DNA of 64,000 bases from Myxococcota bacterium (GTDB taxonomy: Bacteria > Myxococcota_A > UBA9160 > UBA6930): assembly GCA_965223415.1 (NCBI GenBank), contig OZ245002.1, positions 3,456,001 to 3,520,000 of the forward strand. Direction: 5' to 3'. The notes under the pieces are model-generated. The model worked only from the letters and a program-made list of their open reading frames with translations, ran no database searches and had not been told where the DNA came from. Shown piece by piece: positions 21,643 to 51,108 of this stretch. Position 1 is the first letter of the stretch. Every line of letters begins with the position of its first letter. The translations under genes were made by a program, and so were the position numbers.

Positions 21643-22405
21643 ATGCGCGCCACCGCGGCGCTCGTCGCCGGGCTGCTCCTGCTGCTCGCGGCCCCGCCCG
21701 GCGGCGCTCAGGTCGCCGACCCGGTCCCGGACGTTCCCCAGGGCCCCCGAGGTGTCGCCGCCCGGCACGTGGTTACCGCTGCCCGACAGCGGGAGCCTGG
21801 CGAAGCCGCGGGCCCGGCCGATGACCCTCGTCGGCGACGGCGCGGGGCGGCGCTTCGTCGTCGACCACAACGGGCTCCTCTACCAGCTCCACGCGGATGA
21901 CTCACTGTCGGTCTTCCTCGACCTGGCCGCCGCCACCAGTCTCGTGGCGAACCAGTGCCAGAAGGGCCTCGCCTCCGCCGCCTTCCACCCGGACGACCAC
22001 GTTTCCGGAGCGGCCGGCTTCGGCAAGCTCTACACGGCCAGCAGCCAGCCGGCGAGCGTGACGCCGGACTTCCCGGTGCCGGCGGGCGGGCCCACCTCCC
22101 ACCACTCGGTGGTCCACGAGTGGGACGTGGACCCGACGGATCCGAACGCCGGCGGCGTCTCCGCCGGCGCCGCCCCGGACCCGAACGGCGCCGACCCCCA
22201 GTGCCCGGCTGCCTGGGGCGACCGGGAGGCGTCGCTCGGCGGCGGGGGGTGTGGGCTCGGACCGGAGCTCGTCGGGCTGCTGCCGTTGCTCTTGGCGTGG
22301 CGCAGGCGGCGGGGGTCGCGACGGCCCGTTCAGTCGGCCGGCTCCGGGAAGAGCCCGACGATCAGCGGGTCGTGGTCGGAGGCGCGGAAGGGATCCGGCA
22401 CGTAG
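21643..22405 (+). pseudogene. Decayed exported PQQ-dependent sugar (glucose/sorbosone) dehydrogenase-like gene with CGLGPEL tail
   Basis: Signal-peptide ORF at 21643 shifts frame near 21777; the second frame has RFVVDHNG...FLDL...GLASAAFHPD...GKLYT, then jumps to a C-terminal tail. Confidence 0.7.
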
Positions 22406-24182
22406 AGCCCGGGCGGGCGATCCTCGCGGTAGTCGAGCAGTCGCAGCTCATCGCTGTTCGTGTGCCACACGGCCGCTCCGCCGATACGGGGCAGCAGTGC
22501 GGGATGGGCCAGCGCGTGGTCGAGCCTTCCCGCCCCGCCGTCGAACACGAAGCTGTAGGCCTCCGGATCTCCCTGCCATTCGAAGAGGTCGACGTAGCCC
22601 GCGGAGGCGAGGGCCGTCAGCGGGTCCTCCCGGGGATGGCATTCAGGTCGCCGACGATCAACACCGGTGCACCGCCGGAGTGGGTCGGGTCCGTGGCAAG
22701 CCACTCGGCGAGTGCGGCGGCGCCCCGGAGCCGCGTTCCGTTGCAGCGCCCCTGTCCATCGCCCGTATCCGGATCGCCGGCCGCATCGCAGGAGGAGCCC
22801 TTCGACTTGAAGTGGTTCACGACGAGGGTGAGATGCTCACCGCTCGCCAGGTGGCGGAAGGTCTGGGCGAGGCTCGGCCGGTTGCGGGTCGAATCGAAGT
22901 CCTCGTGGGCCAGGGCATCGAGCACCGCCGGGACGCCGACCGGCTCCAGGAGGTCGGGTCGATAGAGGAGGCCGACGGAGATGGCGTGGGAGCCGAGGGC
23001 TCCCGGTCCCGGGTCGACGATCGCGAAGGGCGCCGCCGGCACGTGGCGCGCGAGGGCATCGGCCAGCTCGCGGGCGGCGCTTCCGGGCCCGACGCCGTTG
23101 TTCTCGAGCTCCGCCAGGGCGATCAGGTGGGCATCCGCGGCCGCCAGGGTCGCCACCAGCTTGGCGCGCTGGCGCTCGAGCTCGAGGGGGCTGCGGGCAC
23201 CGCGGGTCGGGAAGCCGCCTCCGCGGCCGTCGCCGTTGAAGTGGTTGCCGACGTTCCAGGCGAGCACGCGGAGCGCGCCGGCGACGTCCGGCGGCCCGGT
23301 GGGACGAAGCGCCGTGCTCTCGAAGCGAACGGGGCGGGTGGGCTGGATCCGGTAGCGGCCGAAGGCGAAGTCCAGCACGCCTTCGACGGGTCCACCCAGA
23401 TCGCCCAGGCGCAGGGGCAGGCCGTGCATCGTCTCGAGGTAGGGCGGAGGCGTCGGGTCCCGGAGCCGGCTGCCATCGTCGAGCAGGATGCGGCGCCGGG
23501 CATGATCGGCATGCCGCGCCCGGGCTTCCCGACCCGGCCAGGCGACCTGGGTCGGCGCGGGCAGGCGGCCTCCCGCGGCGAGAACGACCTCGCCGAAGCG
23601 CCCCGCAGCGAAGTGGTCGGTCAGTGTCAGGCCGCTGTCCAAGCGCACGGCCATGCCCTCCCATCGCTCCCACTCCGCCTCGGAAGGAACCGGCAGCTCC
23701 ACGCCGGCGGGGGTCGCTCGCCCGCCGGGTTCGCAGCGGATCACGCTCTCGATCCCTCCGAGCTCCGTCAGTCCGAAGAACTCCCGGACCCGGCCGCTCA
23801 CCCGCACCGTGTCGCCGGTACGGACGTCGACGGCAGCGCTGCCGTCGAAGACGAAGAGCCCCTCCGAGGTGCCCGGATCCGCGTCGGCGTGGGCGTCCTC
23901 CTCCTGGAGGAAGAAGCCGCCGAGACCCTCCGGGTAGCCCTGGAAATCGCCCACCACGACACCCTCCACCACGACGCCGGCCCGACCAGCGAGTGGACTC
24001 GAGAGGCCGGCTCCCTGGATCTCGTGGACCCGCGTTGCCGGAGCGCCGCAGACGTCCGGCGGATGCACGACGGAGCAGCGCGCTCCGAGGCCGAGGACGG
24101 CGGCGAGGACGAGGGCCCCGGCGTGGGCGGGAGAGCGGGCGGGGAAGGAGCGGGACGCGAGACGTCGCGCCGGCATGGTCAC
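22330..24182 (-). pseudogene. ExeM/NucH-family extracellular endonuclease, frameshifted
   Basis: GFFLQ, SEGLFVF, EGMAV, NHFKSKG, GDLNA in one frame; EDP...LDH...ASDHDP in another; 1-nt deletion at 22637/22638. Confidence 0.85.
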
Positions 24183-24412
24183 CTCTGACAGACCGGAGTC
24201 TGCTCTTCGGGACCGCTGCGCGATCGGATCTCGCGGGGGTGAGCGAGGCGCGGCGCCTCCACTCCACTTCTAGCAGGTGGACGGACCCGGAGCGAGTGCC
24301 TGCCCGACCGTCGCCGGCAGCGGCTCCTGTTCCCGCTCCCGCGAGGGCCCCCGTGAGCGAGGCGGAGGAGCGCCTCGGCTCCAGCTCAGGAAGGCGGTGC
24401 CCCGCCCGGGCC

Positions 24413-25858
<1,446 letters not shown>

Positions 25859-25913
25859 GGGGGCGACTCCTTGGGTGCGGGCGCGCGGGCCCGAAGAAGG
25901 CTGGGATTGTATT

Positions 25914-25931
25914 CATCCGTTTATGCGGATG
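25914..25931. promoter_or_regulatory. Palindromic operator candidate upstream of ahcY
   Basis: CATCCG-N6-CGGATG in an AT-richer divergent intergenic region. Confidence 0.5.
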
Positions 25932-25986
25932 CAATGGTGCATTTCTTGAGACTCGGATCCCCTGGGGGATCAGCTAGCTTCCGAGC

Positions 25987-26568
25987 ATGCGAACGGCCCT
26001 GCTCGCCCTGCTCGTCCTGCTGGCCGCCGGGGCGGTGGCGGCTCCGGACTCCCCTCTCGGCGTGACGGTTCGCCGGATCGACGGAAAAGAGGAGGCGCTC
26101 TCCCGTCACGCGGGCAAGGTCCTCCTGATCGTGAACGTGGCGAGCCAGTGCGGCTTCACCCCCCAGTACGAGGGGCTGGAGGCGCTCCACGAGCGCTACC
26201 GGGAGCGCGGGCTCGTGGTCCTGGGCTTCCCCTCCAACGACTTCGCCGGTCGGGAGCCCGGCAGCGACGCGGAGATCGCCGATTTCTGCCGCGCGAACTG
26301 GGGCGTGACCTTTCCGATGTACGCCAAGCTGCACGTCGCCGGCCCGGACCAGCATCCGCTCTACGCCTACCTGACCGGCCTTCCCGTGCCCCTCGGAGGC
26401 CCCGTCGAGTGGAACTTCCAGAAGTACCTGGTCGGCCGGGACGGCCGGGTCGCCGACCGCATCGCGCCCGCCATCGAGCCGCTCGCGGACGAGCTGGTCG
26501 GGAAGATCGAGATCCTGCTGGACGAGCCGGTGCCTACGGATAGCGGAGGCCGCAGAGCTCCTCGCTGA
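25987..26568 (+). CDS. Glutathione peroxidase (Cys-type) with signal peptide
   Basis: NVASQCGFTPQY, GFPSNDF..REPG, WNFQKYL. Confidence 0.93.
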   Translation: MRTALLALLVLLAAGAVAAPDSPLGVTVRRIDGKEEALSRHAGKVLLIVNVASQCGFTPQYEGLEALHERYRERGLVVLGFPSNDFAGREPGSDAEIADFCRANWGVTFPMYAKLHVAGPDQHPLYAYLTGLPVPLGGPVEWNFQKYLVGRDGRVADRIAPAIEPLADELVGKIEILLDEPVPTDSGGRRAPR

Positions 26569-26611
26569 TCTCCCACAATCGCCGGGCCGTCTCGGGGTGG
26601 GTCGCGTGGGA

Positions 26612-26965
26612 CGCCCGCACTTCCCGATCAACCTGGCGGACCTGCTCTTGCGCCACGGCAGCGCGAACCACAAGCGGGAGACGATCGCGTTCTCGAAGCG
26701 GAGGCAGGGGGCGCTGTACCGGGCGGCGATCTGGGTGGTGTGGCGGAACTACGTGAAGTGGAGCGCCGAGGGCAAGCGCAGCGATCCCCCGGCGGTGCAG
26801 CTCGGGATCGTCCCGACACGGCTCTCGGTGAACGAGATCCTCTCGCGTCGCCTCTTCCCGTGGCGCCAGGAGCTCGCGCCCTGGCTCACGGCCTGCTACC
26901 GCGGCCGAATCCGCACGCGATGCCTCGCGAGGCAGAGGACGCACCGACTTCGCTACGCGGACTGA
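26612..26965 (+). pseudogene. C-terminal fragment of a putative transposase (IS1-like)
   Basis: HKRETIAFSKR...WRNY...PAVQLG resembles IS1-type C-termini (RxTxxFSK, PAMxxG); N-terminus absent. Confidence 0.5.
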
Positions 26966-27030
26966 GCGACCGATCCCCGTGAACGAGGGGGCACCTCCCC
27001 CCCCCCCAGACCCAATCTTCGATCCACAAC

Positions 27031-28281
27031 TCACTCCATGCGTGCGGCGTCGGTCGTCGCCGCCACGATCCCGACCAGCACCAGCATCGCGCCACCCAGC
27101 GCCATCAGCGAGCCCCCGGGTCCGAGGGTGGCGGTGGTGTATCCGGCCATGAGCGAGCCCACCGGTGCCGCGCCGAGGAAGCCGAGCTGGTTGACCGCGA
27201 GGACCCGGCCGCGGGAGGGACCGCGGGCGCGCTCCTGGAAGAGGGTGCGGCTCATGTTCATGAAGACCGAGCCGCAGAGCCCCCAGCCCAGGGTCGCCGC
27301 CACGGCGCCCCCGTAGGGCACGCCGCTGCCGGCGGCCATCAGGCACAGCCCGCCGCTCGCCAGGGCCAGCGCGAGGGCGCGGCCCTTGCGCCGGATGCCG
27401 CCGCGCTTCAGGAGCACGAGGCTTCCCGCGATCGTGCCGATCGGGAACATCATCATCAGCAGCGAGAGCTGCTGCACACTGCCGCCGTAGACGTCGCGTA
27501 CCAGCAGCGGGAAGACGACGTGGTAGCTGCCCATGAAGAACAGGCCGACCCCGGCCACGAGCAGCAACACCGGACGCAGCTCCGAAGCCCACACGAAGCG
27601 CACGCCCTCGGTCATCTCGCCCAGTGAGAGGCGGCGTGCGGGGGGGACGTCGCGCTTGGCGCGGGCCGGGAGACGCCGGGCGAAGAGCGACCCCGCGGCC
27701 AGCACGACGGCCTGCACGGCGAGGGCCGCCTCGGTGCCGATCCAGCGGGCGGCACCGACGATGGTCATACCCACGGTCTGAGAGCCGAACTGGACCACCG
27801 TAACGCCGGTGACCGCTCGCCCGAGGTCGTCGCCGGCGACCGTCGACAGGATGCTGTCGCGGGCCGGATTGCTGAAGGCGCTGCTCATGCCGACGCCCAG
27901 GCCGCAGAGCACGAGCACCGGAAGCGAGAGCCAGCCGCCCGCCACGGCGGCGAGGAGCAGGGCCACGGGGATCACGGCACCCAGATGGAGGACGATGAGC
28001 AGGCGCCGCGGGTCGAAGCGGTCGGCGATGGCACCGCCCACGAGAAGGAAGCTCAGGTTCGAGACCAGCACGGACATCTGCGCGAGGCCGGTGGTCTCGG
28101 CGCTGGCCTGGAGCACGCCGACGACGAGCCACGGGAAGAGCACCTGCTGCATGCCCCAGCCCCCGAACCAGGACGAGATCGTCCCGAGGTAGGAGACGAA
28201 CTGCCGGCGCCGCTCGCGCTCGGCGGCTGCGCCGGTGGGGGAGGGCGACGGCGGGCCGGGTTCGCGGGCGGGCTCCGCCAT
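27031..28281 (-). CDS. MFS transporter
   Basis: GAIADRFDPRRLL motif A, about 12 hydrophobic segments, RGRV. Confidence 0.9.
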   Translation of the reverse strand: MAEPAREPGPPSPSPTGAAAERERRRQFVSYLGTISSWFGGWGMQQVLFPWLVVGVLQASAETTGLAQMSVLVSNLSFLLVGGAIADRFDPRRLLIVLHLGAVIPVALLLAAVAGGWLSLPVLVLCGLGVGMSSAFSNPARDSILSTVAGDDLGRAVTGVTVVQFGSQTVGMTIVGAARWIGTEAALAVQAVVLAAGSLFARRLPARAKRDVPPARRLSLGEMTEGVRFVWASELRPVLLLVAGVGLFFMGSYHVVFPLLVRDVYGGSVQQLSLLMMMFPIGTIAGSLVLLKRGGIRRKGRALALALASGGLCLMAAGSGVPYGGAVAATLGWGLCGSVFMNMSRTLFQERARGPSRGRVLAVNQLGFLGAAPVGSLMAGYTTATLGPGGSLMALGGAMLVLVGIVAATTDAARME

Positions 28282-28346
28282 CCGGCGATGGTACCGGTCG
28301 CCCGCCGGGTCGCGTAGAGTCAACGGCCGATTCCGGAGGAGTGCCC

Positions 28347-29228
28347 ATGCGCCTCGGCCTGCAGGTTCCGAACTTCACCTGGCCCGGCGGAGCGGACGCG
28401 ATCGCCGGCACGCTCCGGCAGATCGCCGAGACCGCCGACGAGGGCGGCTTCGCCAGCCTCTGGGTCATGGATCACTTCTTCCAGATCCCGCTGGTCGGAC
28501 GGCCCGAGACCGACATGCTGGAGGGCTACGGCGCCCTCCACTACCTGGCGGGCCTCACGCGCCGCGTGCGGCTGGGCACGATGGTGACCGGGGTGACCTA
28601 TCGCCATCCCGGGGTGCTGGTGAAGACCGTGAGCACGCTGGACGTGCTCTCCGGCGGGCGCGCGACCCTCGGGATCGGCGCCGCCTGGTTCGACCGCGAG
28701 CACCACGGCCTGGGGGTTCCGTACCCGCCCCTGGGCGAGCGCTTCGAGCGTCTCGAGGAGACGCTGCAGATCGCTGAGCAGATGTGGTCCGAGGACGACG
28801 GGCCCTACGAGGGCCACCACTACCAGCTCGCCGAGACCCTGTGCGTGCCCCGGCCGCTCCAGCGGCCGCGGCCGCCGATCCTGATCGGCGGCATGGGCGA
28901 GCGCAAGACCCTGCGTCTCGTCGCCCTCTACGGCGACGCCTGCAACCTCTTCACCTTCATGGGCATGGACGAGCTGGGCCGCAAGCTCGACGTGCTCCGC
29001 CGCCACTGCGAAGACGTCGAGCGGGACTTCGACGAGCTCGAGCGCACCAGCCTCTCGACCATCCAGCTCGGCCCCGAGCACATGAGCGTCCCCGACGTCA
29101 TCGCCCACTGCCGCCAGCTCGCAGACCTCGGTATCCAGCACGCCATCGTGAACCTCCCCGACGTCCACGACATCACGCCCCTCGAGACCCTCGCCAAGGA
29201 AGTCGTCCCCGAGATCACCGGCTTCTGA
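28347..29228 (+). CDS. LLM-class oxidoreductase, predicted F420-dependent type
   Basis: WVMDHFFQI, GTMVTGVTYRHPG, LGIGAAW, GGMGERKTL. Confidence 0.85.
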   Translation: MRLGLQVPNFTWPGGADAIAGTLRQIAETADEGGFASLWVMDHFFQIPLVGRPETDMLEGYGALHYLAGLTRRVRLGTMVTGVTYRHPGVLVKTVSTLDVLSGGRATLGIGAAWFDREHHGLGVPYPPLGERFERLEETLQIAEQMWSEDDGPYEGHHYQLAETLCVPRPLQRPRPPILIGGMGERKTLRLVALYGDACNLFTFMGMDELGRKLDVLRRHCEDVERDFDELERTSLSTIQLGPEHMSVPDVIAHCRQLADLGIQHAIVNLPDVHDITPLETLAKEVVPEITGF

Positions 29229-30708
29229 ACGTTCCCTCTGCCGCGTTGAGGATGGTGCGGGCGCCTTGTTGGCCGGAGGTGATGACGCCGGTGATGCCGC
29301 CGCCGGGCTGGGTCCAGTGGCCGGCGAGGTGGAGCCCACGAATGGGAGTCGTCGGGTCGGGGCGGCCGGGGCCCACCTGGGCGGGGGTGAGGGCGAAGCC
29401 GTAGAGGGCGCCGGCCTCGTTGCGGGTGTAGCGCTCGAGGGTGCGGGGCGTGGCGCCTTCGCGGAAGCGGATCGCCGGACCGAGGCCGGGCAGCCGCGCC
29501 GCGGCGGCCTGGATCAACGCCTCGGTGAGCTCCTCCTTGCGGGCCGGCCAGGGGCCCGCGTCGGCGCCGAGCAGCGTGGTCAGCACCAGCAGGTGCTCGT
29601 CGTCCGGCGCCAGCGACGGGTCCAGCCCGGTCGGGACCGTGGCGGTGAACCAGCTGGGCCGGCCCGCGAGCGCAGTGCCGTAGGCCGCCTCGTGGTCGAC
29701 GCCGTCGTAGAAGAAGGTCTCGTGGACCCTCGCCGGCAGCGCGGCGCGCTCCACCGCCAGGTAGACCACGAAGCCGGAGATCGAGGCCTCGAGGCGTTCG
29801 AGCTGGCGCCGCGAGCCCGCCGGGATGTGCTCCCGCCCGATCAGCTCGAAGGCGGTCTGCCGGGCGTCCGCGTTCGAGACCACGACCGGCGCGGCGATGC
29901 GCTGCCCGTTCTCGAGCACGATGCCCCGCGCCGCCTCGTCCGACACCAGGATGCGTCGGACTGGACTGCGCAGCAGGATCTCTCCCCCGTGGCTCTCCAC
30001 CGCATGGGCCAGGGCCCGCGCCAGGTTCTGGAAGCTGCCGCGCGCGTAGATTGCGCCCGCCTCCAGGTAGGAGACGAGCATCGTCGACCAGTAGAGGAAC
30101 GAGAGCTTCGAGGGCGGCAGGCCCAGGTAGGGCCACAGGGCGGTGAGCGCCGCCCGCGCGGCGGGATCGCGCACCTGGGATTCGAGCACGTCGGCCACGC
30201 TGGCGCGCCGGTGCCGCAGGAGCGCCGGGAAGCGGCTGGCCCGGCGCAGGATCTCCATCGGTGAGTCGAGCAACGCCGCCCGGTCCGTCTCCCGCGCGAT
30301 GTCCGCGCACTCGGTGAGGAAGGCGCGAATGCCCTTCTCTTCCTTCGGGAAGGCCGCCACGTGGGCCTCGCCGAAGCCCTCCAGGTCGCCCGGCACCTCC
30401 AGGCGCGTACCCGGCAGCTCGACGGCGTAGAAGGGCTCGACCGGCAGCCCCTCGCAGCGATCCGCCACGCCGAGCTCTTCGAGCAGCGCCTCGACGCGCC
30501 CGCGACCCACCACGTGCACCGCCGAGTCGAACAGCCGGCGCCCGCGGCGGAAGGCGTGGGCGTAGCCGCCGACCCGGTCGTGCCGCTCGACGACGAGCAC
30601 CCGCCTTCCCGCCCTGGCCAGCAGGGCGGCCGCCGTGAGGCCGCCGATCCCGCTCCCCACCACGACGATGTCGTAGTGATCGCTGCGCGCCTCCGGGTGG
30701 AACCGCAA
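29215..30708 (-). CDS. Phytoene desaturase-family FAD-dependent oxidoreductase
   Basis: GSGIGG, VGGYAH.F, ATPRTLERYT...GALYG, LAGHWTQPGGG. Confidence 0.85.
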   Translation of the reverse strand: MRFHPEARSDHYDIVVVGSGIGGLTAAALLARAGRRVLVVERHDRVGGYAHAFRRGRRLFDSAVHVVGRGRVEALLEELGVADRCEGLPVEPFYAVELPGTRLEVPGDLEGFGEAHVAAFPKEEKGIRAFLTECADIARETDRAALLDSPMEILRRASRFPALLRHRRASVADVLESQVRDPAARAALTALWPYLGLPPSKLSFLYWSTMLVSYLEAGAIYARGSFQNLARALAHAVESHGGEILLRSPVRRILVSDEAARGIVLENGQRIAAPVVVSNADARQTAFELIGREHIPAGSRRQLERLEASISGFVVYLAVERAALPARVHETFFYDGVDHEAAYGTALAGRPSWFTATVPTGLDPSLAPDDEHLLVLTTLLGADAGPWPARKEELTEALIQAAAARLPGLGPAIRFREGATPRTLERYTRNEAGALYGFALTPAQVGPGRPDPTTPIRGLHLAGHWTQPGGGITGVITSGQQGARTILNAAEGTFRSR

Positions 30709-30723
30709 TGGGGCGGCCGCGCT

Positions 30724-31971: not shown

Positions 31972-32276
31972 CGCGGCGCAGTCTAGCCCTAATCGGGCAT
32001 TCGGCTCGGAGTGAGGTGGCTGCGAGTCGGCGCTCGGAGGAGCAAGGCGCGGCCCCCTGCGTTCCGCACGACGACCCGCATCCTTGCGGGTGTTGCGCAG
32101 AGCGGCAGGCCCGGTTCCGGGTCGCGCCGACCGCGAGCGCTGCCCCGCGGCCACCTCACCGCGGCTCGAGGGGCAGCCAATGCGGCGTCGGAGCCAGCCC
32201 CCGTCCGCGTGGCCGCGAAAGGCTGGGGCCTTTCGCCTCGTGCCTTCCCGGGGAGGTTGCGCGAGACTCCGCGGCG

Positions 32277-32537: not shown

Positions 32538-32543
32538 GGCCAC

Positions 32544-40009: not shown

Positions 40010-40012
40010 CCG

Positions 40013-41761: not shown

Positions 41762-42516
41762 AGCCCGCCCTGCTGATCCCCGTTCACCAGCACGCGGAGC
41801 CCCTGGCCGCGGTGCTCGACGGGCTGGCCGGCTACGGCCTGCCCTGCTTCGTCATCGACGACGGCAGCGACGCGGCGAACCGTGAGCGCATGCAGGAGCT
41901 GGCCCGCAGTCACGACTTCGTCGAGCTGCACCACCGGGCCCACAACGGCGGCAAGGGGCTGGTGCTGCGCAGCGGCTTCCGGCTCGCGGCCCATCGCGGC
42001 TACAGCCACGTGATCCACCTGGACGCGGACGGCCAGCACGCGCCGGCGGACGTGCCGCGTTTCCTCGAAGCCATGTCCACCCATCCGGACGCGCTGGTGC
42101 TCGGCGCGCCGCGCTTCGACGCCTCGGTGCCGAGAGCGCGGCTCGCGAGCCGTCAGCTCTCCCGCTTCTTCGTGTGGCTGGCCACGCTCTCCTTCGCCGT
42201 CGAGGACCCCCTGGTGGGCTTCCGCGGCGTTCCCCTGGAGCCGACCCTCTCGCTCCTCGACCGGGTGCGCACCGGTGACCACATGGAGTTCGAGCCGGAG
42301 CTCGCCGTGCGCCTGGTGTGGGAGGGCGTGCCGGTGGTGAACCTGCCGACGCCCATCGTCTACCCGGAAGGCGGCCATTCGAACTTCGACGTGATCTGGG
42401 ACGACCTGCGGCTCGCCTGGCTCTACACCCGGCTCTGCACGGGCATGCTCCCGCGCACGCCACGGCTCCTGTGGCGGCGGCCCACGGCGCTGCCGCTCCT
42501 GGTCGAGAGCACGTGA
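41758..42516 (+). CDS. Glycosyltransferase family 2 (ApeJ N-domain-like)
   Basis: IDDGS, NGGKG, DADGQH, GFR. Confidence 0.9.
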   Translation: MKPALLIPVHQHAEPLAAVLDGLAGYGLPCFVIDDGSDAANRERMQELARSHDFVELHHRAHNGGKGLVLRSGFRLAAHRGYSHVIHLDADGQHAPADVPRFLEAMSTHPDALVLGAPRFDASVPRARLASRQLSRFFVWLATLSFAVEDPLVGFRGVPLEPTLSLLDRVRTGDHMEFEPELAVRLVWEGVPVVNLPTPIVYPEGGHSNFDVIWDDLRLAWLYTRLCTGMLPRTPRLLWRRPTALPLLVEST

Positions 42517-43466
42517 GCGCCGCCACCTCGAACCCGCCGGCCTGGGCCCAGGCGGCCGAGTCGGGCTCCCTCCTCGCCATGCGGGTCATGCGCGGCATCT
42601 ACCGCGTGCTCGGTCGTCGGCTCTCCCGAGCGTTGCTCTGGCCGATCGCGCTCTACTTCACCGCGGTGAACGGGGTCTCGCGCCGGGCGCACCGAAGCTA
42701 CCTCTCCCGGCTGCGCGCGACGACGCCCGACGCCACGCTGCCGTCGCCCAGCTTTCGGACCGCGCTGCGTCACACCCACGAGTTCGCGGTGAACCTCTTC
42801 GACCGCATGATCGCGTGGGGTGGCGAGCTCGACGACATCGAGTTCCTGCACCGGGGCTCCGAGCACCTGTTCGCCCTGGCCGAGCGGGGCGAGGGCGCGA
42901 TCCTGCTGGGCTCCCATCTCGGCAGCTTCGACATGATGCGGCTGCTCGCCGGACGGCACGGTCTCGTGGTGAACGTGCTCATGTACACCCGGCACGCGGA
43001 GCAGATCGGGCGCTTCCTCGCCCAGCTCGATCCCGAGCACCCGGTGCGCGTGATCTCCCTGGACCCCTCCTCCACCCGCACCGCCTTCGAGATCCGCCAG
43101 TGCCTCGAGCGCGGCGAGTTCGTGGGCATCCTCGGGGATCGGCTCTGGCCCGCGGACGCCGGGCGCCGGGAGTGGGTTCCCTTCTTCGGGGAGCCGGCGC
43201 CTTTCTCCCTCCGTCCGTTCCTGCTGGCGGGCGTGCTCGGCGCGCCTCTGCTCTTCGCCCTGTGCGTGCGGCGCGGCTCCTCCACCTACGAGGCCGTGGT
43301 CGAGCCCCTGCACGAAGGCGGTCCGGTGCCCCGGCGGGAGCGCGACGCCCGGGCCCGGGAGTGGCTCGCCGCGTACGTGGCGCGGCTCGAGGACGGCTGT
43401 CGCTCCGCGCCCTATCAGTGGTTCAACTTTCACGACACCTGGCAGGAGAAGGGAGGCGCCCGGTGA
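42513..43466 (+). CDS. LpxL-family acyltransferase (ApeJ C-domain-like)
   Basis: SHLGSFD, GDR, PYQWFNF. Confidence 0.85.
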   Translation: MSAATSNPPAWAQAAESGSLLAMRVMRGIYRVLGRRLSRALLWPIALYFTAVNGVSRRAHRSYLSRLRATTPDATLPSPSFRTALRHTHEFAVNLFDRMIAWGGELDDIEFLHRGSEHLFALAERGEGAILLGSHLGSFDMMRLLAGRHGLVVNVLMYTRHAEQIGRFLAQLDPEHPVRVISLDPSSTRTAFEIRQCLERGEFVGILGDRLWPADAGRREWVPFFGEPAPFSLRPFLLAGVLGAPLLFALCVRRGSSTYEAVVEPLHEGGPVPRRERDARAREWLAAYVARLEDGCRSAPYQWFNFHDTWQEKGGAR

Positions 43467-43927
43467 GCTTTCCGGCCATCGAGGAGCTGGTGCCCCACGC
43501 AGGCCCGATGTGCCTGCTCGATCGCGTGCTGCGCCACGACGAGGAGGAGACGGCCTGCGCGGTGCGACCCGAGGCGAGTGGCGCCCTGGCTCTGGGGGAC
43601 GGTCGGCTCCCGGCCAGCGTGGCCCTCGAGTGGATGGCCCAGTGCATCGCCGTCGACGGAGGTCTGCGCGCCCGGGCCCACGGCGTGCCTCCGCGCCCCG
43701 GCCTCTTCCTTGGTGCGCGACGGGCTTCGCTCCCGGGGGACGCCTTCGACCCGGACGGCGAGCTGGTCGTCGTCGCGCGCCGGGTGCGCGGCTCCGGGCG
43801 GGGTGCCCATGCCTTCGCCTGCCGGCTCGAGGCGCCCGGCGCCGGAGCGCTGGCCGAAGGCACGCTCCAGGTGATGATCGCCGAGGACCTCGCCTCCCTC
43901 TCCGGCGGGAGCGGCCCGTGGCGTTGA
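43463..43927 (+). CDS. Hotdog dehydratase (ApeP-like)
   Basis: LVPHAGPMCLLD, EWMAQ, GLFLGAR. Confidence 0.85.
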   Translation: MSFPAIEELVPHAGPMCLLDRVLRHDEEETACAVRPEASGALALGDGRLPASVALEWMAQCIAVDGGLRARAHGVPPRPGLFLGARRASLPGDAFDPDGELVVVARRVRGSGRGAHAFACRLEAPGAGALAEGTLQVMIAEDLASLSGGSGPWR

Positions 43928-44667
43928 GGCGAAGGCGGGAGGCCGGGGACGCTCCGCGCCGGGTGCTCGTCACCGGCGCCAGTGGCGGCCTCGGTCGCCC
44001 CATCGCCCTGGCCCTCGCGCGGGAGGGCTTCGGCGTCATCGTCCACTACGGCCGCCGGGCCGAGGCGGCAGAGGCGACGGCGGAGGCCTGCGGCGCCGGA
44101 GCGCGGGTGCTCGGCTTCGACGTGGCCGATCGCGACGCCGCCCGCGCCGCACTGGCCACGGAGCTCGAGGAGCACGGCCCCTTCTGGGGCGTCGTCTGCA
44201 GTGCCGGCATCCACGACGATGCGGCCTTCCCCGCCATGGGTGCGGAGGCCTGGGACCGCGTCCTGCGCACGAACCTGGACGCCTTCCACCACGTGGTCCA
44301 GCCCCTCGTGATGCCGATGGTGCGCGCCCGGCGCGGCGGACGGATCGTGACGATCTCGTCGGTGAGCGGCCAGATCGGCAACCGCGGCCAGGTGAACTAC
44401 GCGGCCTCCAAGGCCGGCCTGATCGGGGCCAGCCGCGCCCTCGCCCTCGAGCTGGCTGGTCGCGCCATCACGGTGAACAGCGTGGCGCCGGGCCTGATCG
44501 AGACCGAGATGGTGGACGCGGAACGCGCGGAGGCGCTGCGCGCCCTGATCCCGATGCAGCGCCTCGGGACCGCCGCGGAGGTGGCTGCGGTGGTGGCCTT
44601 TCTCTTCTCCGACGGCGCGGCCTATGTTACGGGCCAGACGATCGGAGTGAACGGAGGCCTCGCGTGA
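43918..44667 (+). CDS. fabG: 3-oxoacyl-ACP reductase (ApeQ/FabG-like)
   Basis: TGASGGLG, DAAFP, GNRGQVNYAASK, VAPGLIETEM, VNGG. Confidence 0.9.
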   Translation: MALRRRREAGDAPRRVLVTGASGGLGRPIALALAREGFGVIVHYGRRAEAAEATAEACGAGARVLGFDVADRDAARAALATELEEHGPFWGVVCSAGIHDDAAFPAMGAEAWDRVLRTNLDAFHHVVQPLVMPMVRARRGGRIVTISSVSGQIGNRGQVNYAASKAGLIGASRALALELAGRAITVNSVAPGLIETEMVDAERAEALRALIPMQRLGTAAEVAAVVAFLFSDGAAYVTGQTIGVNGGLA

Positions 44668-46220
44668 AGCTCGACGTGGCGATCCTCGGCGGCGGCATGG
44701 CAGGAAGTCTGCTCGCGCGCCAGCTCGGCCGCGAGGCGCCGGGCCTCCGGATCGGGCTCTTCGAGAAGAGCACCGAGCCCTCCTACAAGGTCGGCGAGAG
44801 CACCGTCGAGATCGGCAGCTCCTACCTGATCCGCCGCGTCGGCCTCTCGCGCTACCTGTACGAGCAGCACCTGCCGAAGAACGGGCTCCGCTACTTCTTC
44901 GACGACGCGTCCAAGCAGAGCGAGCTGACCGGGATGAGCGAGATCGGCACGGTCAACCTGCCCTTCCATCCCTCCTTCCAGGTCGATCGGGCGCGCCTCG
45001 ACGCGGACCTCCTCGCCATGAACGAGCAGGCGGGCATCCTCGTGCACACGGGCACGCGGGTCGAGGACGTGGAGCCGGGGCAGGGCGGCTCGCCCCACGC
45101 GTTCCGCATCGTCCGCGAAGGGAAGAGCGAGCGGGTCGAGTGCCGCTGGCTCCTCGACGCCAGCGGGCGCGCAGCGCTGCTCTCCCGGGCGCTGGAGCTG
45201 CGGGTCCGGGAGGAGAACCATCCGGTGCTCTCGGTGTGGGGGCGCTTCGAGGGCGTCGCCGACGTGGACGATTGGGGCGATCCGGCGTTCTCCGCCCGCG
45301 TTCGGCACACGGCCCGCGGCATCTCGACGATCCACTTCTGCTACCCGGGCTATTGGATCTGGTTCATCCCGCTCGGCCACGGCCTGACCAGCATCGGCGT
45401 GGTGGGCGATCCGCCCGGCGAGTTCGGCGCCCTGCGCACCGAAGGAGGCTTTCGGGCGTTCCTGGAGTCCCACCGCGCGATCGCCTCGTTGCTCACCCGC
45501 GCGAAGGCGGTGGACGTCGCCGGGCTCAAGAACTTCTCCTACGGGACGCGCCGGTACTTCTCGGCGGATCGCTGGGGCCTGGTCGGGGAGGCGGCGGCCT
45601 TCGCCGATCCCCTCTACAGCCCCGGCGCCGATTTCATCGCCCTCGAGAACGACTTCCTCTGCGATCTCGTGAAGCGCGATCTGGCCGGCGAGCCCGACGC
45701 CGAGCTCGAGCGCCGGGTGGAGCTCTACGACGCCTTCATGGCCTTCCGTCTGGAGGCGGCCATGCGCCTCTACCGCGGGCTCTACGGGCTCCTCGGCAGC
45801 TTCGAGCTGATGCGCATGAAGTGGGACTTCGACATCGGCTGCTACTTCAACCTGTGGGTCGCGCCCTACTTCCTGGACGAGTACCTGGACGAGACCTTCC
45901 TTCGCCGCCAGGTGCGCCAGCAGCGCTTCGTGCTCCAGGCGCTCTCGAACTTCGCGGACCTGTTCCGTGCCGCCGAGGCGCACCTGCGCGAACGGGGCGA
46001 CTACCACCGCTCCAACCAGGGCATCTTCTCCTACGGCCTCGAGAACATCGACTTCATCGAGCAGGTGGGCCTGCCGCGCAGTCAGCGGGAGGTCCTCGAG
46101 AAGACCGCCGAGATCTTCAACGGCGTGCGCCGCCGGGGGCTCGAGCTGCTCGGGCGCGAGGGGGACTCGGACGCCCCCCTTCCGCTGACGAGCATGATGA
46201 CGCCGAACCCGCTCTTCTGA
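44664..46220 (+). CDS. Flavin-dependent halogenase-like protein
   Basis: GGGMAG, KVGES, PKNG, GYWIWFIP (WxWxIP), FADPLYSPG. Confidence 0.8.
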   Translation: MKLDVAILGGGMAGSLLARQLGREAPGLRIGLFEKSTEPSYKVGESTVEIGSSYLIRRVGLSRYLYEQHLPKNGLRYFFDDASKQSELTGMSEIGTVNLPFHPSFQVDRARLDADLLAMNEQAGILVHTGTRVEDVEPGQGGSPHAFRIVREGKSERVECRWLLDASGRAALLSRALELRVREENHPVLSVWGRFEGVADVDDWGDPAFSARVRHTARGISTIHFCYPGYWIWFIPLGHGLTSIGVVGDPPGEFGALRTEGGFRAFLESHRAIASLLTRAKAVDVAGLKNFSYGTRRYFSADRWGLVGEAAAFADPLYSPGADFIALENDFLCDLVKRDLAGEPDAELERRVELYDAFMAFRLEAAMRLYRGLYGLLGSFELMRMKWDFDIGCYFNLWVAPYFLDEYLDETFLRRQVRQQRFVLQALSNFADLFRAAEAHLRERGDYHRSNQGIFSYGLENIDFIEQVGLPRSQREVLEKTAEIFNGVRRRGLELLGREGDSDAPLPLTSMMTPNPLF

Positions 46221-46233
46221 GACCCGCCCGGCG

Positions 46234-46944
46234 ATGGCCCACCGGCACCCGTTCCGTTCGCCGCCCCCGCCCGCGGTGGGCCTCGCCGTGCTCGGCGTCG
46301 CGCTGGTGGCGGCCTATCCCTTCGCGCTCGAATGGGCGCTCCAACGCTTCGGGCTGCGCCCGGTGGCGATCGCCCTGTTCGCGAGCGGAGCCCTGGGCCT
46401 CGCCTGGCGCTGGCGGGGGATCACGGCTCCGGCGTTGCGGCCGACCCAGCTCGGTATCCTGGCTCTCCTGGCCCTCGCCGCCGTGCAGGAGAGCCGCGCC
46501 CCCCTGCTCCTGGTTCCGGCGGCGATCCAGCTCGGCCTGGCCGGCTACTTCCTCGCGAGCCTCCGGCCCGGGGATTCGGTGGTCGAGCGCATGGCCCATG
46601 TCATGCAGCCCTACCTCCCGGACTGGATCCGCCCCTACTGCCGGATCGTGACCGTCCTCTGGGCCCTCTTCTTCCTCGGCAACGCCGTCGCCATCACGGT
46701 CCTCGCCGCCGACGCGGACCCGCAGCGCTGGCGCAGCTGGACGGGCATCGGCCTCTACGTGACCGCGCTCGCGCTCCAGGCCGTCGAGTCCGTGTTCCGC
46801 AAGTCGTGGTTCCGCGCCTTCGACGAGGGACCGATCGATCGGCTGTTCGCGCGTCTGTTTCCGCCGGAGCGCACGGCCCGGGGACGGCGGTCGATGGAGT
46901 ACATTCGCCGGATGCGAACCGTTCTCGGAATGGAGGAGCCGTGA
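46234..46944 (+). CDS. Membrane protein of APE-type clusters (ApeG/COG4648-like)
   Basis: AYPF, SL...SVVERMA, YCRIVTVLWALFF..N. Confidence 0.75.
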   Translation: MAHRHPFRSPPPPAVGLAVLGVALVAAYPFALEWALQRFGLRPVAIALFASGALGLAWRWRGITAPALRPTQLGILALLALAAVQESRAPLLLVPAAIQLGLAGYFLASLRPGDSVVERMAHVMQPYLPDWIRPYCRIVTVLWALFFLGNAVAITVLAADADPQRWRSWTGIGLYVTALALQAVESVFRKSWFRAFDEGPIDRLFARLFPPERTARGRRSMEYIRRMRTVLGMEEP

Positions 46945-48176
46945 GCGAGCGGCGAGTGGTGGTGACCGGCATGGCCGGCATCTCGCCGATCGGCTCCAGC
47001 TGGGAGGAGGTGCGCCAGGCCCTTCGCGAGGGCCGCTCCGGCGTCGCCCACTGGGACGCGCTGGCGGCGGTGGAGGGCGTGCGAACCCGCCTCGCCGCGC
47101 CCGCTCCGGATCCCGAGCTCACCGGCGCGCCGCGCAAGAAGCTCCGCGGCATGGGCCGCGTCTCCCGCCTTGCCACCTGGGCCACCGGTCGGGCCCTCGA
47201 GGCGGCGGGGCTCGCCGGCGATCCGGTCCTCTCCGACGGCCGCACCGGCCTGGCCTACGGCTCCACCTCGGGCAGCCCCCCCGACATGGTCGATTTCGCG
47301 CGGGCCTTCGGCATCGATCGCCGGGTGAAGGGCGTCGTGCCGGTCCAGTACGTGAAGCTGATGAGCCACACCTGCGCCGCGAACTTGGCCCAGTTCTTCG
47401 AGATCCGCGGCGCCGTGCTGCCCACGCCGAGCGCCTGCACCTCCGGAAGCCAGGCGGTCGGCGCCGGCTACGAGCAGATCCGCTTCGGGCGCCAGGAGCT
47501 GATGGTCTGCGGCGGCGCCGAGGAGCTCCACGAGATCGAGGTCGGCGTCTTCGACCTGATGTTCGCCACGTCCACCCGCAACGACGCGCCCGCCGCGGCC
47601 TGCCGGCCCTTCGATGCCGAGCGGGACGGCCTGGTGGTGGGGGAGGGCGCCGCCACCCTCGTCCTCGAGTCCCTGGAGCACGCCCGGGCCCGGGGCGCCC
47701 CGATCCTCGCCGAGGTGATCGGCTACGGTACCAACTGCGACGGCCTGCACCTGATGGCGCCGGATCCGACGGGCATGGAAGGCGCCATGCAGCGCGCCCT
47801 CGCCGACGCGCGCCTCGACCCGGCCCGCGTCGACTACGTTTGCGCCCACGCCACCGCCACCGAGGCCGGCGATGTCGCCGAGAGCACGGCCACCCGCCGC
47901 GCCTACGGCCGGGCGCTTCCGGTGAGCTCCCTCAAGGGCCACCTCGCCCACACCCTCGGCGCCTGCGGAGCCCTCGAGGCGTGGATCACGATCGGGATGC
48001 TCCGGGAGGGCTGGCTCGCGCCCACCCTGAACCTGGAGCAGGTCGATCCTCGCTGCGCCGAGCTGGACTACGTGGCCGGTGCACCCCGCGAAGCCGCTCC
48101 CGAGATCGTCGCCAGCAACAACTTCGCCTTCGGCGGGATCAACACGTCACTCCTCTTTCGGCGGTTCGAGGTCTAG
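46941..48176 (+). CDS. Beta-ketoacyl-ACP synthase (ApeR-like)
   Basis: AYGSTSGS, MSHT, SACTSGSQ (catalytic Cys), HATAT, HTLGACG, NNFAFGG. Confidence 0.92.
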   Translation: MSERRVVVTGMAGISPIGSSWEEVRQALREGRSGVAHWDALAAVEGVRTRLAAPAPDPELTGAPRKKLRGMGRVSRLATWATGRALEAAGLAGDPVLSDGRTGLAYGSTSGSPPDMVDFARAFGIDRRVKGVVPVQYVKLMSHTCAANLAQFFEIRGAVLPTPSACTSGSQAVGAGYEQIRFGRQELMVCGGAEELHEIEVGVFDLMFATSTRNDAPAAACRPFDAERDGLVVGEGAATLVLESLEHARARGAPILAEVIGYGTNCDGLHLMAPDPTGMEGAMQRALADARLDPARVDYVCAHATATEAGDVAESTATRRAYGRALPVSSLKGHLAHTLGACGALEAWITIGMLREGWLAPTLNLEQVDPRCAELDYVAGAPREAAPEIVASNNFAFGGINTSLLFRRFEV

Positions 48177-48191
48177 AATCGAGAGGGGGAG

Positions 48192-48215
48192 ATGGGGCAT
48201 TTCGCCCCATATCTT
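48192..48215 (+). terminator. Hairpin after the APE operon, possible terminator
   Basis: ATGGGGC-ATTTC-GCCCCAT followed by ATCTT; weak U tract. Confidence 0.4.
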
Positions 48216-48312
48216 GATGCGGATCCGCATGCCGGAGCGGTGCTGAGCTTCCGCTGAAGCAGCACACGGCGTCATCGCCCACCCTGGTCCTCGGGCCAGG
48301 AAGGGAGACGCC

Positions 48313-49692
48313 ATGACACGACCCATCCACTCCGCAGTAGGGACGGCCATCCTGGCGTGCCTGCTCACCGCCGGATCCGCGATGGCCGCCGTCTTCCAGG
48401 TGACCACGACGTGGGACCTACCGGACGACGCGCCCGGCGACGGCGTCTGTTCCACCCTCGTTCCCATCGGCCCGCCGGTCGGCTTCCCGCCAACACCCCC
48501 GATGGGCTTCCGTTGCACGTTCCGAGGGGCGCTGCAGGAGGCCAATCGGATCCCGGGGGCGGACGAGGTGCTTCTGCCGGCCGCCAGCATGGCGGTGATC
48601 CTGGACGACGACGATCCATTCGCGCTCACCGAGGACGTGGCCATCCGCGGTGCCGGGATCGCGACGACGACGCTCACGCTGTCGGGCACCCGCTCTCTGG
48701 ACGCGGGCCCGGCTGCCCTCGAGCTCAGCGACGTGACCCTCCTGAACTCCGGGACCAACCAAGCCGTCGTGCGAGGATGGCGCGAGGTCACGCTCAGGCG
48801 CGTGGTTGCAAGCGGCTTCTCCCGTCTCGCTCAGACATCCTCTCCTCTGGGCGTCCTGACAGTCGAAGACTCCATGATCGAGGACACCGTCGACGGTCTC
48901 CGGGCGATCGGAGGGCGGTTGGTCGTCGATCGCTCTCGCGTCGAGACCGTCCTGAACGCCTCGGGGGGAGTGGGCGTGGCCATCGCCGGGAGTGCGGTCG
49001 TGCTTCGCGACACAACCGTCGAAGGGGAAGGTGTCGGGGTTTCCGTGACGGTAGGTCCGCCGCCGACGATCTCGATCGAGAGGTCGACCCTTCGCGGGCT
49101 CGCGTGGGCAATCTGGACCTCGACCTCGGTGAGCGTCTCCGAGATCTGGGTGTCGAACTCGACGCTCTCGGGGAATGCTGGAGGCATCGGTGTCGACGAC
49201 GCCGGCGACGTCGTGCTCGAGCACGTCACGCTGACGGGTTCCGGCTACGCGGGATTGGCCGTCGGAAGCCTCGGCGTCGACTCGCTGATCCTCGATCACG
49301 CCATCGTCGCGGGGAACGCGATCGACTGCTTCTTCGCCTTCTACACCGAGGTGGAGTCCCGCTACTCACTCGACGGCGACGGAAGCTGCGGCCTCACGGA
49401 TCTCACCGACCTCCCCGCGACCGATCCAGCGTTGCTGCCTCTTGCCGACAACGGCGGACCCACGTGGACCCACTCGCTGGCCTCGGGGAGTCCGGCGCTC
49501 GATGGAGGAGACACCGCCTGCTCCGTGTCTGTCGACCAGCGCGGCGAGCCGCGGCCCCGAGGCACCGCGTGTGATCTCGGTGCCTTCGAGGGCCCGGCTC
49601 CCTCTGGAGGCCCGGCCTGTGGCCTCGGTGCGGAGCTGGTTCTGGCGCTGCCGCTCCTGACGGCCTGGCGCCGGCGAACCCGCGCGCCGTGA
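48313..49692 (+). CDS. Exported beta-helix-like protein: CSLREA-like N-terminus, choice-of-anchor-Q-like C-domain, CGLGAEL tail
   Basis: Signal peptide ...AMA; VTTTWD...GDGVC...CTFRGALQEAN; PLADNGGPTWTH...GSPA...DQRG...CDLGAFE. Confidence 0.82.
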   Translation: MTRPIHSAVGTAILACLLTAGSAMAAVFQVTTTWDLPDDAPGDGVCSTLVPIGPPVGFPPTPPMGFRCTFRGALQEANRIPGADEVLLPAASMAVILDDDDPFALTEDVAIRGAGIATTTLTLSGTRSLDAGPAALELSDVTLLNSGTNQAVVRGWREVTLRRVVASGFSRLAQTSSPLGVLTVEDSMIEDTVDGLRAIGGRLVVDRSRVETVLNASGGVGVAIAGSAVVLRDTTVEGEGVGVSVTVGPPPTISIERSTLRGLAWAIWTSTSVSVSEIWVSNSTLSGNAGGIGVDDAGDVVLEHVTLTGSGYAGLAVGSLGVDSLILDHAIVAGNAIDCFFAFYTEVESRYSLDGDGSCGLTDLTDLPATDPALLPLADNGGPTWTHSLASGSPALDGGDTACSVSVDQRGEPRPRGTACDLGAFEGPAPSGGPACGLGAELVLALPLLTAWRRRTRAP

Positions 49693-49908
49693 CCGCGTGG
49701 AGCCGCGGATCGCCGCTGCCGCGATCGTAGGAGGGGCGATCGAGATGCGGCGCTCCCATTGAGTCCTCGCCTCATGTCGCCGCGCCCTGGGATTCGAGAC
49801 GGAGGTCCTCCACGCGAACCCGCTCTCTGCAGGAGGCGCCTCCGTGGCCGCCCGCGGCGACGGAACGGATTGTCGCGCACTCCCGCAGGAGGATGCGGAA
49901 GCTTCGCG

Positions 49909-51108
49909 TCACCTCCTCGGCACGGCGCGGGGCGCGCCGAGCTTCCTGCGCCGACGGAGGGATCCGAGCGCCGGCAGCAGAAGGGCCAGCTCCGGGCCGA
50001 TGCCGCAGGTCGGGCCTCCCCCGCCGGCGGGCTGCCACTCGAAGGCCCCGAGATCGCAGGCCGGCCCCTGTGGCCGCAGCTCTCCTCGCTGGTCGGTCGT
50101 CGGGAGGCATGTCGCGGCGCCGGCGTCGCGGGCCGGGCTTCCGGCGGGCAGTCCGTGGGTCCAGGTCGGTCCCCCGCGATCGGCCAGCGCGAGGAGCTGG
50201 GGGTCTGTCGCCGGAAGGTCCGTGGGATCCGCGAGGCCGCAGGAGCCATCGCTGTCGAGCGAGTGAGTCGAGACGACGATGGCCTGGCCGATCCCGGAGA
50301 AATCGCAATCGGCCGCGGCGCTGCCCGCAAGGATCGTATGGTCCAGATACAGGGTGAGCTGGTCCGCATCGCCACCCACTGCGCTCTGCTGGGACTCCGC
50401 GACCGTGACGTTCTCGAGCCGCACGATCGCGTTCGCATAGAGCTGGATGGCCGCGCCGTTGTTCGAGAAGGTCGAGTTGCGGGCCCAGAGGTCCATCGGA
50501 AGCGTGTTCGAGAGAGACACGCCCTCTCCGCAGTTCAGGACCGTCGTGCCTTCGAGAGCGACGAAGTGCCGGGCGAGAATCGCGCGAGGAGCGTACATCT
50601 CGCAGTCGAGAGTCGAGTCCACAGCGGTCACGTAGTTGCCGAAGACCATCGTGTTCCCGATGTCCCGCACGGTCACCCGATCCAGGTCGACGTTCGTGGT
50701 GCTGATCGCCCAATCGCTCTCGAGGATCTCCGTGTCGGTGGCAAGCACCGAAGATCCGCTCGGGAAACCCGACTCGTGGACGGCGAAGTTCCAATCCCGA
50801 ATGCGCGAGTCCATGACCTCGAGTGAGCCACCGCTCTCCGTCTCGATCGCATGGGTGATCAGCGAGCGGTCACCCTCGAGGGCGAGCGAGCGGATCTCGA
50901 GCGTGCCGCCGTGCAGGTGGTCGAAGCCGTCTCCGCCGGTCACGCGGACGATCGTGGCATCCCTCCCGGTGCCGACGATCTCCACGTCGTCCAGTACGTC
51001 CAGATCACCGATCGCGGCGACGTCGTCGTCGATCCCTGCAGATGGATCGAGGCTCTGGACGTCGAACGTGCCGGTCGGAAGCGACACCACGTCGGCGCCG
51101 GGGGCGAG
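49909..51108 (-). pseudogene. Paralogue of 48313-49692 lacking its N-terminus, with CGIGPEL tail
   Basis: Similarity starts at PGADVVSLP; shares SLDSDGSCGL.D.TDLPATDP...GGPTWTH...DQRG...CDLGAFE; no in-frame signal peptide upstream. Confidence 0.65.

Follow-up and report, generated by a model that had tools for sequence, protein, structure and literature searches.

Three genes in a 64,000-nucleotide stretch of a Myxococcota genome (assembly GCA_965223415.1, contig OZ245002.1, positions 3,456,001 to 3,520,000; the whole stretch is called the window here) carry the same short cysteine-containing C-terminal tail, and the question is what this tail does and which enzyme would act on it. Here, we report that it is very probably a Cys-type C-terminal sorting signal restricted to one class of Myxococcota, which we take to be UBA9160, and that a variant with Pro at position 5 accompanies Lgt2, a divergent paralog of the lipoprotein-modifying enzyme Lgt. 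In the model that we prefer, at a probability of roughly 0.6, Lgt-family enzymes would lipidate the tail on its Cys, with Lgt2 serving the Pro variant. In the accessible part of a preprint (10.64898/2026.07.10.737566), the class is renamed Vahlivitia and placed in Myxococcota_A.

Tail copies and their hosts

The window holds three tail copies on three hosts.

21643..22405, + strand: host of copy 1, a gene remnant; its signal peptide (from 21643) and the remainder lie in different frames
22250..22312, + strand: tail copy 1 (Pro variant), on the gene remnant; stop 51 residues past the Cys
48313..49692, + strand: intact host of copy 2, 459 amino acids; signal peptide, beta-helix region, choice-of-anchor Q domain, tail
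49618..49692, + strand: tail copy 2 (Ala variant); ends 24 residues past the Cys
49909..51130, − strand: 5'-truncated paralog of the copy-2 host, carrying copy 3; choice-of-anchor Q domain, no signal peptide
49942..50007, − strand: tail copy 3 (Pro variant); stop 32 residues past the Cys

The motifs, starts (22250, +; 49618, +; 50007, −) and equal spacing of the tails are exactly those given in an earlier sequence-only reading of the window, which had also proposed three exported-type hosts from two unrelated families, two of them with intact N termini and signal peptides. This description fits copy 2, whose host is whole and has a signal peptide; copies 1 and 3 stand on remnants, and the copy-1 signal peptide lies in another frame than its tail. 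The copy-2 host scored 83 bits with NF041518 (cut-off, 25) and also matched PF13229. It and the copy-3 host are paralogs of one family (45 to 47% over 170 to 177 amino acids; choice-of-anchor Q in both), and the open reading frame (ORF) called for the latter reaches 51687, the part above ~51130 being non-coding in appearance. The copy-1 host body (a 217-amino-acid ORF) is apparently internally deleted and matched no model; its likeness to sugar dehydrogenases, the second proposed family, is our own reading only. Over 21400-24400, a contig of short reads that may come from the source sample showed no difference, so the breaks in the copy-1 gene are in the DNA and are not long-read errors, which rules out an assembly error as their cause.

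Beside the copy-1 remnant, an extracellular-nuclease-like gene (22330-24182, −; our reading) is split over two frames, and the short-read contig is identical there too. A fatty-acid-synthase-like cluster (46332-57000; ketoacyl synthases, from ORF reading) lies on both sides of the two choice-of-anchor Q genes.

The source genome (G000; 5.83 Mb, 71% G+C, one contig, 97% complete) was searched with a filter of motif, hydrophobic stretch, basic cluster and nearby stop. Fifteen copies passed, versus none in 10/10 block-shuffled translations; a looser pattern gave 23 matches, of which 16, one of them degenerate, are tails with a stop close by. A profile built from the 15 good copies scored its own members at 33 to 50 bits (by construction) and the next match at 11.6 bits, and its search of the genome returned no further member. 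As the sequence-only reading had anticipated for a proteome search, the copies are mostly C-terminal on exported-type hosts: 11 end intact, mostly unrelated proteins, each with a signal peptide by eye (11/11), and 4, window copies 1 and 3 among them, lie on gene remnants. The hosts (mostly identified below model cut-offs) include an S8 protease, a metallophosphoesterase-like protein, beta-propellers, an alpha/beta hydrolase, a sugar dehydrogenase with dihaem cytochrome, and FG-GAP and TolB-like repeat proteins, and acidic double-disulfide repeats precede the tail in 7 of 10 scanned hosts. One host (2645564) is 39% identical over 280 amino acids to a paralog that ends in PEP-CTERM, and three others have homologs without the tail. 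A DNA repeat in place of a protein motif was ruled out by variation at synonymous sites among the 15 copies (mean DNA identity, 0.60 over 22 codons; maximum, 0.77). The tail is thus shown to be conserved as protein, on many unrelated Sec-type exported proteins.

A set of 110 distinct tails from fetched loci (63 host groups, many hosts partial) gave the layout C1 G2 G4 E6 L7 x3 L11 P12 x L14 x3 R18-R21 and the consensus C-G-[LFI]-G-[PFAV]-E-L-x3-L-P-x-L-x3-RRRR. Position 3, given earlier as Leu or Ile, also takes Phe, Val or Met (66% L, 17% F, 12% I), and position 5 is mostly P (41%), F (36%), A (15%) or V (6%). Because the search pattern itself demanded the C, G, G and E, their constancy carries no independent weight, and one tail with Gly in place of the Glu was met (L175). 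Pro12 is present in 80% of the tails, the first Arg/Lys stands at position 18 in 64/110 and at position 19 in 26/110, and the Cys lies at most 35 residues from the C-terminal end in 94/110, where the filter admitted up to 60. The linker, described earlier as Gly-rich, is rich in Ser, Pro and Thr as well as in Gly.

Signal peptides, as scored by our own heuristic, were found in 47/56 full-length hosts versus 531/3,781 control ORFs, an enrichment that the sequence-only reading had proposed to look for, and none of the 47 has an N-terminal lipobox. The best 17-residue hydropathy of the tail equals that of the 39 G000 PEP-CTERM tails (1.65 versus 1.66), so the tail is able to span a membrane. Since the number of Cys residues ahead of the tail Cys is even in 39/47 hosts, the tail Cys is usually unpaired.

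The sequence-only reading had taken the tail for a lineage-specific, Cys-containing sorting or lipid-anchoring signal. Copy number, C-terminal position, unrelated hosts and signal peptides all support a sorting signal, as do the exchange of the tail for PEP-CTERM in a homolog and the poor cover by existing models (3/66 tails over a cut-off; see below). The tail would then define the anchoring signal of surface proteases, phosphoesterases, dehydrogenases and hydrolases in an uncultured, myxosortase-poor class.

Distribution and cover by existing models

The tail profile matched 103 of 201 class genomes (100/169 in the order of G000 and 3/32 in the other family, one of the three weakly), with 577 matches in total and up to 31 per genome; a profile model would therefore annotate hundreds of proteins. 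No full match was found in 131 Myxococcota genomes of other classes, which gave only seven partial matches with E above 0.004. In a pattern scan of the whole collection, 65 of the 80 matches listed passed the filter and a few were visibly chance; titles among those listed were mostly Myxococcota or Deltaproteobacteria with some other phyla, so the tail may also occur outside the class. Myxosortase (NF040914) passed its cut-off in 128/131 other-class genomes versus 1/201 class genomes (0/30 in a first draw), and the best G000 score was 26 bits against a cut-off of 100. The distribution of the tail is complementary to that of myxosortase.

Scoring against existing CTERM models, also proposed by the sequence-only reading, gave poor cover: 3/66 tails passed any NCBIfam cut-off (two TIGR03382, one GlyGly-CTERM). 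None passed TIGR03901 (best 19.0, cut-off 20; weak match in 11/66) or Synerg-CTERM (best 19.9 of 22.5; the commonest weak match, 15/66), and no match to CGP-CTERM or JDVT-CTERM was found among the 66. None of the 15 G000 tails was over the cut-off of TIGR03901 or TIGR03382, and the two genome-wide TIGR03901 matches that were over it in G000 are PEP-CTERM tails (false positives). TIGR03901 gave 11 to 76 matches in each of five other-class control genomes, so the models do perform where their signals are expected.

Four Cys-type signals are defined in the part of Haft's preprint that was available (10.1101/2023.06.07.544157), which states that the modifying enzyme is not known. The nearest of the known systems is MYXO-CTERM (TIGR03901, TIGR03382; MrtX/MrtC/MrtP, NF040914), with which the tail shares a phylum, a tripartite layout, an invariant Cys, many unrelated exported hosts, a type II secretion system in the genome (GspD is over its cut-off in G000) and a predicted Cys lipidation before surface display. 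In the accessible sections of Guo et al. (PMC11980579), an Lgt-like enzyme is predicted for MYXO-CTERM, with Lgt the leading candidate and the enzyme called unidentified; MrtX cleavage requires the Cys, and surface display runs via type II secretion. The class tail differs in being shorter (first Arg 17 to 18 residues past the Cys), in its single Cys, in a near-invariant G-x-G-x-E-L and a Pro in the helix, in its tie to an Lgt paralog, and in a class almost without myxosortase (1/201). The tail would work like MYXO-CTERM yet falls outside it by its tests of membership.

It could instead be a diverged MYXO-CTERM signal cut by a diverged myxosortase, as the shared phylum, layout and Cys, the 11/66 weak TIGR03901 matches and the 2/66 that pass TIGR03382 would allow; lineage-specific forms are said to need custom models in the same part of Haft's text (10.1101/2023.06.07.544157). 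We consider this very unlikely, given that no tail passes TIGR03901, a model that works in all five controls, and that the myxosortase core model (Mrt_core) passes in a single class genome and reaches 26 bits of 100 in G000. Glu6 and Pro12 also lie within the helix of the class tail, unlike MYXO-CTERM, whose helix lacks charged and Pro residues according to the available text (Haft, 10.1101/2023.06.07.544157).

Synerg-CTERM (TIGR04564; MrtS, NF040589) resembles the tail in its one Cys, which follows a Ser/Gly linker, and in the Pro of its Leu-rich helix; it comes from another phylum and has no Glu, and class tails reach its cut-off in 0/66. An exosortase substrate, that is, a PEP-CTERM variant in which G-P-E-L echoes P-E-P, is extremely improbable. 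G000 does have two exosortases and 39 PEP-CTERM tails by pattern, and the gene cassette described below begins with a PEP-CTERM gene; against this, Pro occupies position 5 in under half of the tails, the Glu stands ~12 residues ahead of the Arg cluster versus ~16 in G000 PEP-CTERM tails, and no PEP-CTERM model passes for the 66 tails. A literature search outside subscription journals and supplements found no description of the class tail.

The Pro variant and Lgt2

Among 39 membrane-protein genes at most 4 kb from tails (44 loci), those that repeat are Lgt2, PAP2, transporter-like genes and one unidentified pair. Near the tails of low-copy genomes, a fixed order recurs: a PEP-CTERM gene, a DUF7467 protein (~925 amino acids) with the tail, Lgt2, and a PAP2 gene convergent with Lgt2. 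In 14 genomes from four families the tail gene, Lgt2 and PAP2 lie side by side, and all 14 of these cassettes bear the Pro tail. A divergent Lgt paralog plus PAP2 directly after a tail gene is new here; the sequence-only reading overlooked the Lgt-paralog link, as it did the absence of myxosortase from the class and the remnant state of two window genes. In one more genome, Lgt2 stands immediately before an unrelated gene with a tail variant (L175). The ORF at L175:5631-9401 (−) seems to join two genes by read-through: a PEP-CTERM tail lies inside it, followed by another signal peptide and, at its end, a Cys tail in which Gly replaces Glu.

G000 has two Lgt genes, and its Lgt2, PAP2 and cassette remnant are all unlinked.

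G000:C1:3948152-3948916: Lgt2, outside the window; 373 bits to the Lgt2 clade versus 64 for the other Lgt of G000
G000:C1:1324376-1325041: PAP2, outside the window
G000:C1:688602-690556, − strand: cassette remnant; intact PEP-CTERM gene, then a frameshifted, truncated DUF7467 gene without tail

Two further systems can be compared at this point: CGP-CTERM (TIGR04288; MrtA), which is equally short (20 amino acids) and starts with Cys-Gly, and JDVT-CTERM (NF033191; MrtJ), whose helix contains a Pro as well as a conserved acidic residue and whose dedicated enzyme is encoded alongside. The class tail differs from both in that its neighbours are Lgt and PAP2 and no protease.

Lgt2 scored 96.6 bits with PF01790 (cut-off, 24.9); with TIGR00544 (cut-off, 118.9), Lgt2 (68) and the ordinary Lgt (78) both fell below. 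Its predicted structure (pLDDT 94.5) has the fold of Escherichia coli Lgt (TM 0.82 to 5AZB), and the Arg and Tyr residues lining the active site, the equivalents of R143, Y235 and R239, are kept in 96/96 aligned sequences. An H-D-H is invariant in Lgt2, which has F-D-L-G where 46/47 ordinary copies have H-P-T (H-P-T-Q). In a quick tree of 81 Lgt sequences, a long branch parts the Lgt2-like clade from ordinary Lgt, and the NCBI names of close Lgt2 relatives are Myxococcota. For both Lgt2 and the ordinary Lgt, activity is predicted only.

Called at E<1e-60 in the 200 class genomes besides G000, Lgt2 is present in 38, of which 37 are tail-positive (base rate, 102/200). The PAP2 clade occurs in 26/200, all 26 with Lgt2 and with a Pro match; PAP2 matched PgpB and an inositol-ceramide synthase only weakly. 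Of the 65 tail-positive genomes without Lgt2, 51 gave the ordinary Lgt alone, 3 a relative at greater distance and 11 no match, and among the remaining 97 tail-negative genomes, 80 were searched at a lower threshold and 1 held a distant relative.

The pairing of Pro with Lgt2 was first noticed in tails and then tested with two DNA patterns (Pro versus Phe/Ala/Val/Leu/Ser) across the 201 genomes; 30 loci per pattern were translated, and the other matches are raw pattern matches. Raw matches to the two patterns numbered 74 and 69 in the 37 tail-positive Lgt2 genomes versus 2 and 258 in the 65 without Lgt2, with a background of 5 and 12 in 98 tail-negative genomes; Pro matches in G157 and G169 were not tails on translation and were dropped. 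The Pro variant occurs in 29/37 tail-positive genomes with Lgt2 versus 1/65 without (18/24 versus 0/43 at ≥90% completeness), and in 15/23 Lgt2 genomes where Lgt2 lies outside the cassette. In a non-random sample, whose loci were partly chosen by the same patterns, Pro was present in 46/65 translated tails from Lgt2 genomes versus 1/63 from others (128 tails), and within four host families common to both groups in 20/23 hosts with Lgt2 versus 0/13 without. Because the genomes are related and 14 cases are linked, these counts overstate independence.

The sorting signal may be real and Lgt2/PAP2 may merely have travelled with it, the Pro tail having later been copied to other genes while the pair serves lipid synthesis or ordinary lipoproteins. 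Such co-travel would fit the Pro tail in all 14 cassettes, the way Lgt2 tracks family lines within f1, and the 11 other Myxococcota genomes in which a related Lgt is the only one matched. It would also fit the DUF7467 host that bears a Phe tail in a genome without Lgt2 (G019), from which it follows that this host does not need Lgt2, although the switch rule fits there too. Yet Lgt2 and PAP2 were retained in G000 after its cassette broke up (remnant 688602-690556), and in the genus of G000 the three Lgt2 genomes all have Pro tails, while none of the 18 pattern matches in the two without Lgt2 has Pro. Recent copying is further disfavoured by the synonymous differences among G000 tails, and on balance we regard co-travel as unlikely.

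Several observations weigh against lipidation by Lgt-family enzymes with Lgt2 serving the Pro variant. Most tail-positive genomes have no Lgt2 (65/102, some holding 20 to 31 tails), so the tail itself can do without Lgt2 and, if the model holds, ordinary Lgt must act there; its role on Phe/Ala/Val tails is an assumption. One genome (G132, 85% complete) has a Pro tail and no Lgt2 found, eight genomes positive for both Lgt2 and tail have no Pro-Glu tail, and Pro tail and Lgt2 are physically linked in 14 genomes. The residues beside the tail Cys form no exact mirrored lipobox, and no protease tracks the tail, either in neighbourhoods or in a comparison of Rce1-like proteins between tail-positive and tail-negative genomes. 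Unlike E. coli Lgt, Lgt2 has no His at the H103 position (0/96) and has Cys for N146; the ordinary Lgt of the class also lacks H103 (0/47) and N146. His103 is the proposed catalytic base of Lgt in the portion of PMC8689077 that was available. Counted by hand at E<1e-45, 79/131 other-class Myxococcota have a member of a wider Lgt2-like clade, and in 11 of those 131 there is no other Lgt match, so a member of this clade can be an ordinary Lgt.

As a general lipidating enzyme for MYXO-CTERM, this wider clade found no support: it occurs in only 79/131 genomes and is absent from two with 76 and 11 MYXO-CTERM matches. No adjacency to myxosortase was seen among the matches listed from other-class genomes. 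In one class genome (G190; L163:9547-13533, −), three consecutive genes encode a 916-amino-acid protein whose Cys tail is of the GCGC type, a myxosortase-like protein (gene partly deleted) and a relative of Lgt2, an arrangement that speaks for lipidation by Lgt-family enzymes; the same genome holds the only over-cut-off myxosortase of the class (L307), which stands alone.

Processing and a proposed pathway

In agreement with the sequence-only reading, no processing enzyme was seen within the window, and no cognate protease was found in the 44 tail neighbourhoods. G000 has five rhomboids, five Rce1-like proteins and two LspA genes beside its two exosortases and 39 PEP-CTERM tails (by pattern). 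Its Rce1-like proteins scored far below the MrtS and MrtJ cut-offs (best MrtS score, 44 versus 130). Profiling against intramembrane proteases, as proposed earlier, was carried out for Rce1-like proteins, none of which tracks the tail, and rhomboids and exosortases were counted in G000 only. Sixty Rce1-like proteins from six tail-positive and five tail-negative genomes fall in clades common to both groups, and the three shared clades are candidates as housekeeping enzymes.

A single-Glu Rce1-like clade (L275, L278, L279) was found in 11/40 tail-positive versus 0/40 tail-negative genomes. It was rejected as the general enzyme because it is absent from the family of G000 (0/18) and lacks tail-gene neighbours: no tail gene lies within a few kb of its genes among the loci listed. 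In G068, a gene of this clade adjoins a PEP-CTERM gene. A second LspA was also rejected as cognate enzyme; it occurs in 3/4 tail-positive and 1/1 tail-negative genomes and shows no link.

A plain membrane anchor, neither cleaved nor lipidated, with the Cys in a disulfide or structural role and Glu and Pro serving membrane packing, would need no protease and would account for the empty search of 44 neighbourhoods and of the Rce1-like proteins of 11 genomes; the hydropathy of the tail permits it. It would not need a near-invariant motif across genome families, the usually unpaired Cys (39/47) and the homolog that swaps the tail for PEP-CTERM speak against it, and it leaves unexplained the link between Pro and Lgt2. 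We judge it improbable.

The preferred model, in which the tail is lipidated on its Cys, can be laid out as a sequence of putative steps. Sec would export the host, and the signal peptide would be removed. The Arg cluster would remain cytoplasmic and the 17-residue stretch would span the inner membrane, with the unpaired Cys at the periplasmic face, a layout that would mirror a lipoprotein signal peptide. Such signal peptides, as described with Lgt in the available part of the source (5AZB; PMC8689077), likewise have a basic cluster, a short hydrophobic stretch and a Cys beside Gly, and the class tail differs in running in the reversed chain direction. According to the same text (PMC8689077), Lgt moves diacylglycerol from phosphatidylglycerol to Cys at the outer face of the inner membrane; an Lgt-family enzyme would do the same to the tail Cys, the ordinary Lgt being assumed to handle Phe/Ala/Val variants and Lgt2 being needed for the Pro variant. 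The PAP2 partner may supply, turn over or recycle the lipid donor. In the weakest step, the peptide past the Cys would probably be cut by a housekeeping Rce1-like protease and not by myxosortase, or would be retained, and type II secretion would carry the lipid-anchored protein to the surface.

A bolder version, a myxosortase-independent, mirror-image lipoprotein pathway in which Lgt2 and PAP2 read the Pro variant and in which the short tail, broken by Glu and Pro, needs no protease or is cut by an enzyme from a group so far unconnected with sorting, is a doubtful but conceivable extension. If true, the Pro/Lgt2 pair would be a first rule, readable from sequence, for the specificity with which Cys-type C-terminal signals are lipidated. 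It offers a candidate gene, a substrate and a one-residue switch (Pro versus Phe/Ala/Val at position 5) for the missing Cys-lipidation step, which becomes testable because the rule predicts which Lgt acts.

Minor observations concern the surroundings of Lgt genes. An isoprenylcysteine-methyltransferase-like gene (G000:C1:3948932-3949657, +; 34 bits of 160 with NF040696) lies head-to-head with Lgt2 in G000, and in G042 the only tail gene has a similar-looking gene (L588:5382-5981, +) in the same head-to-head position; none was seen beside other Lgt2 genes among the neighbourhoods listed. Both arrangements may be chance, or they may recall the CAAX pathway of eukaryotes. In tail-positive G063, an Lgt gene is convergent with an Rce1-like protease gene (L593:6841-8880). 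Finally, a 632-amino-acid Lgt-like ORF in G033 (L596:6870-8828, +) itself ends in a Gly-rich linker, a hydrophobic stretch and an Arg cluster.

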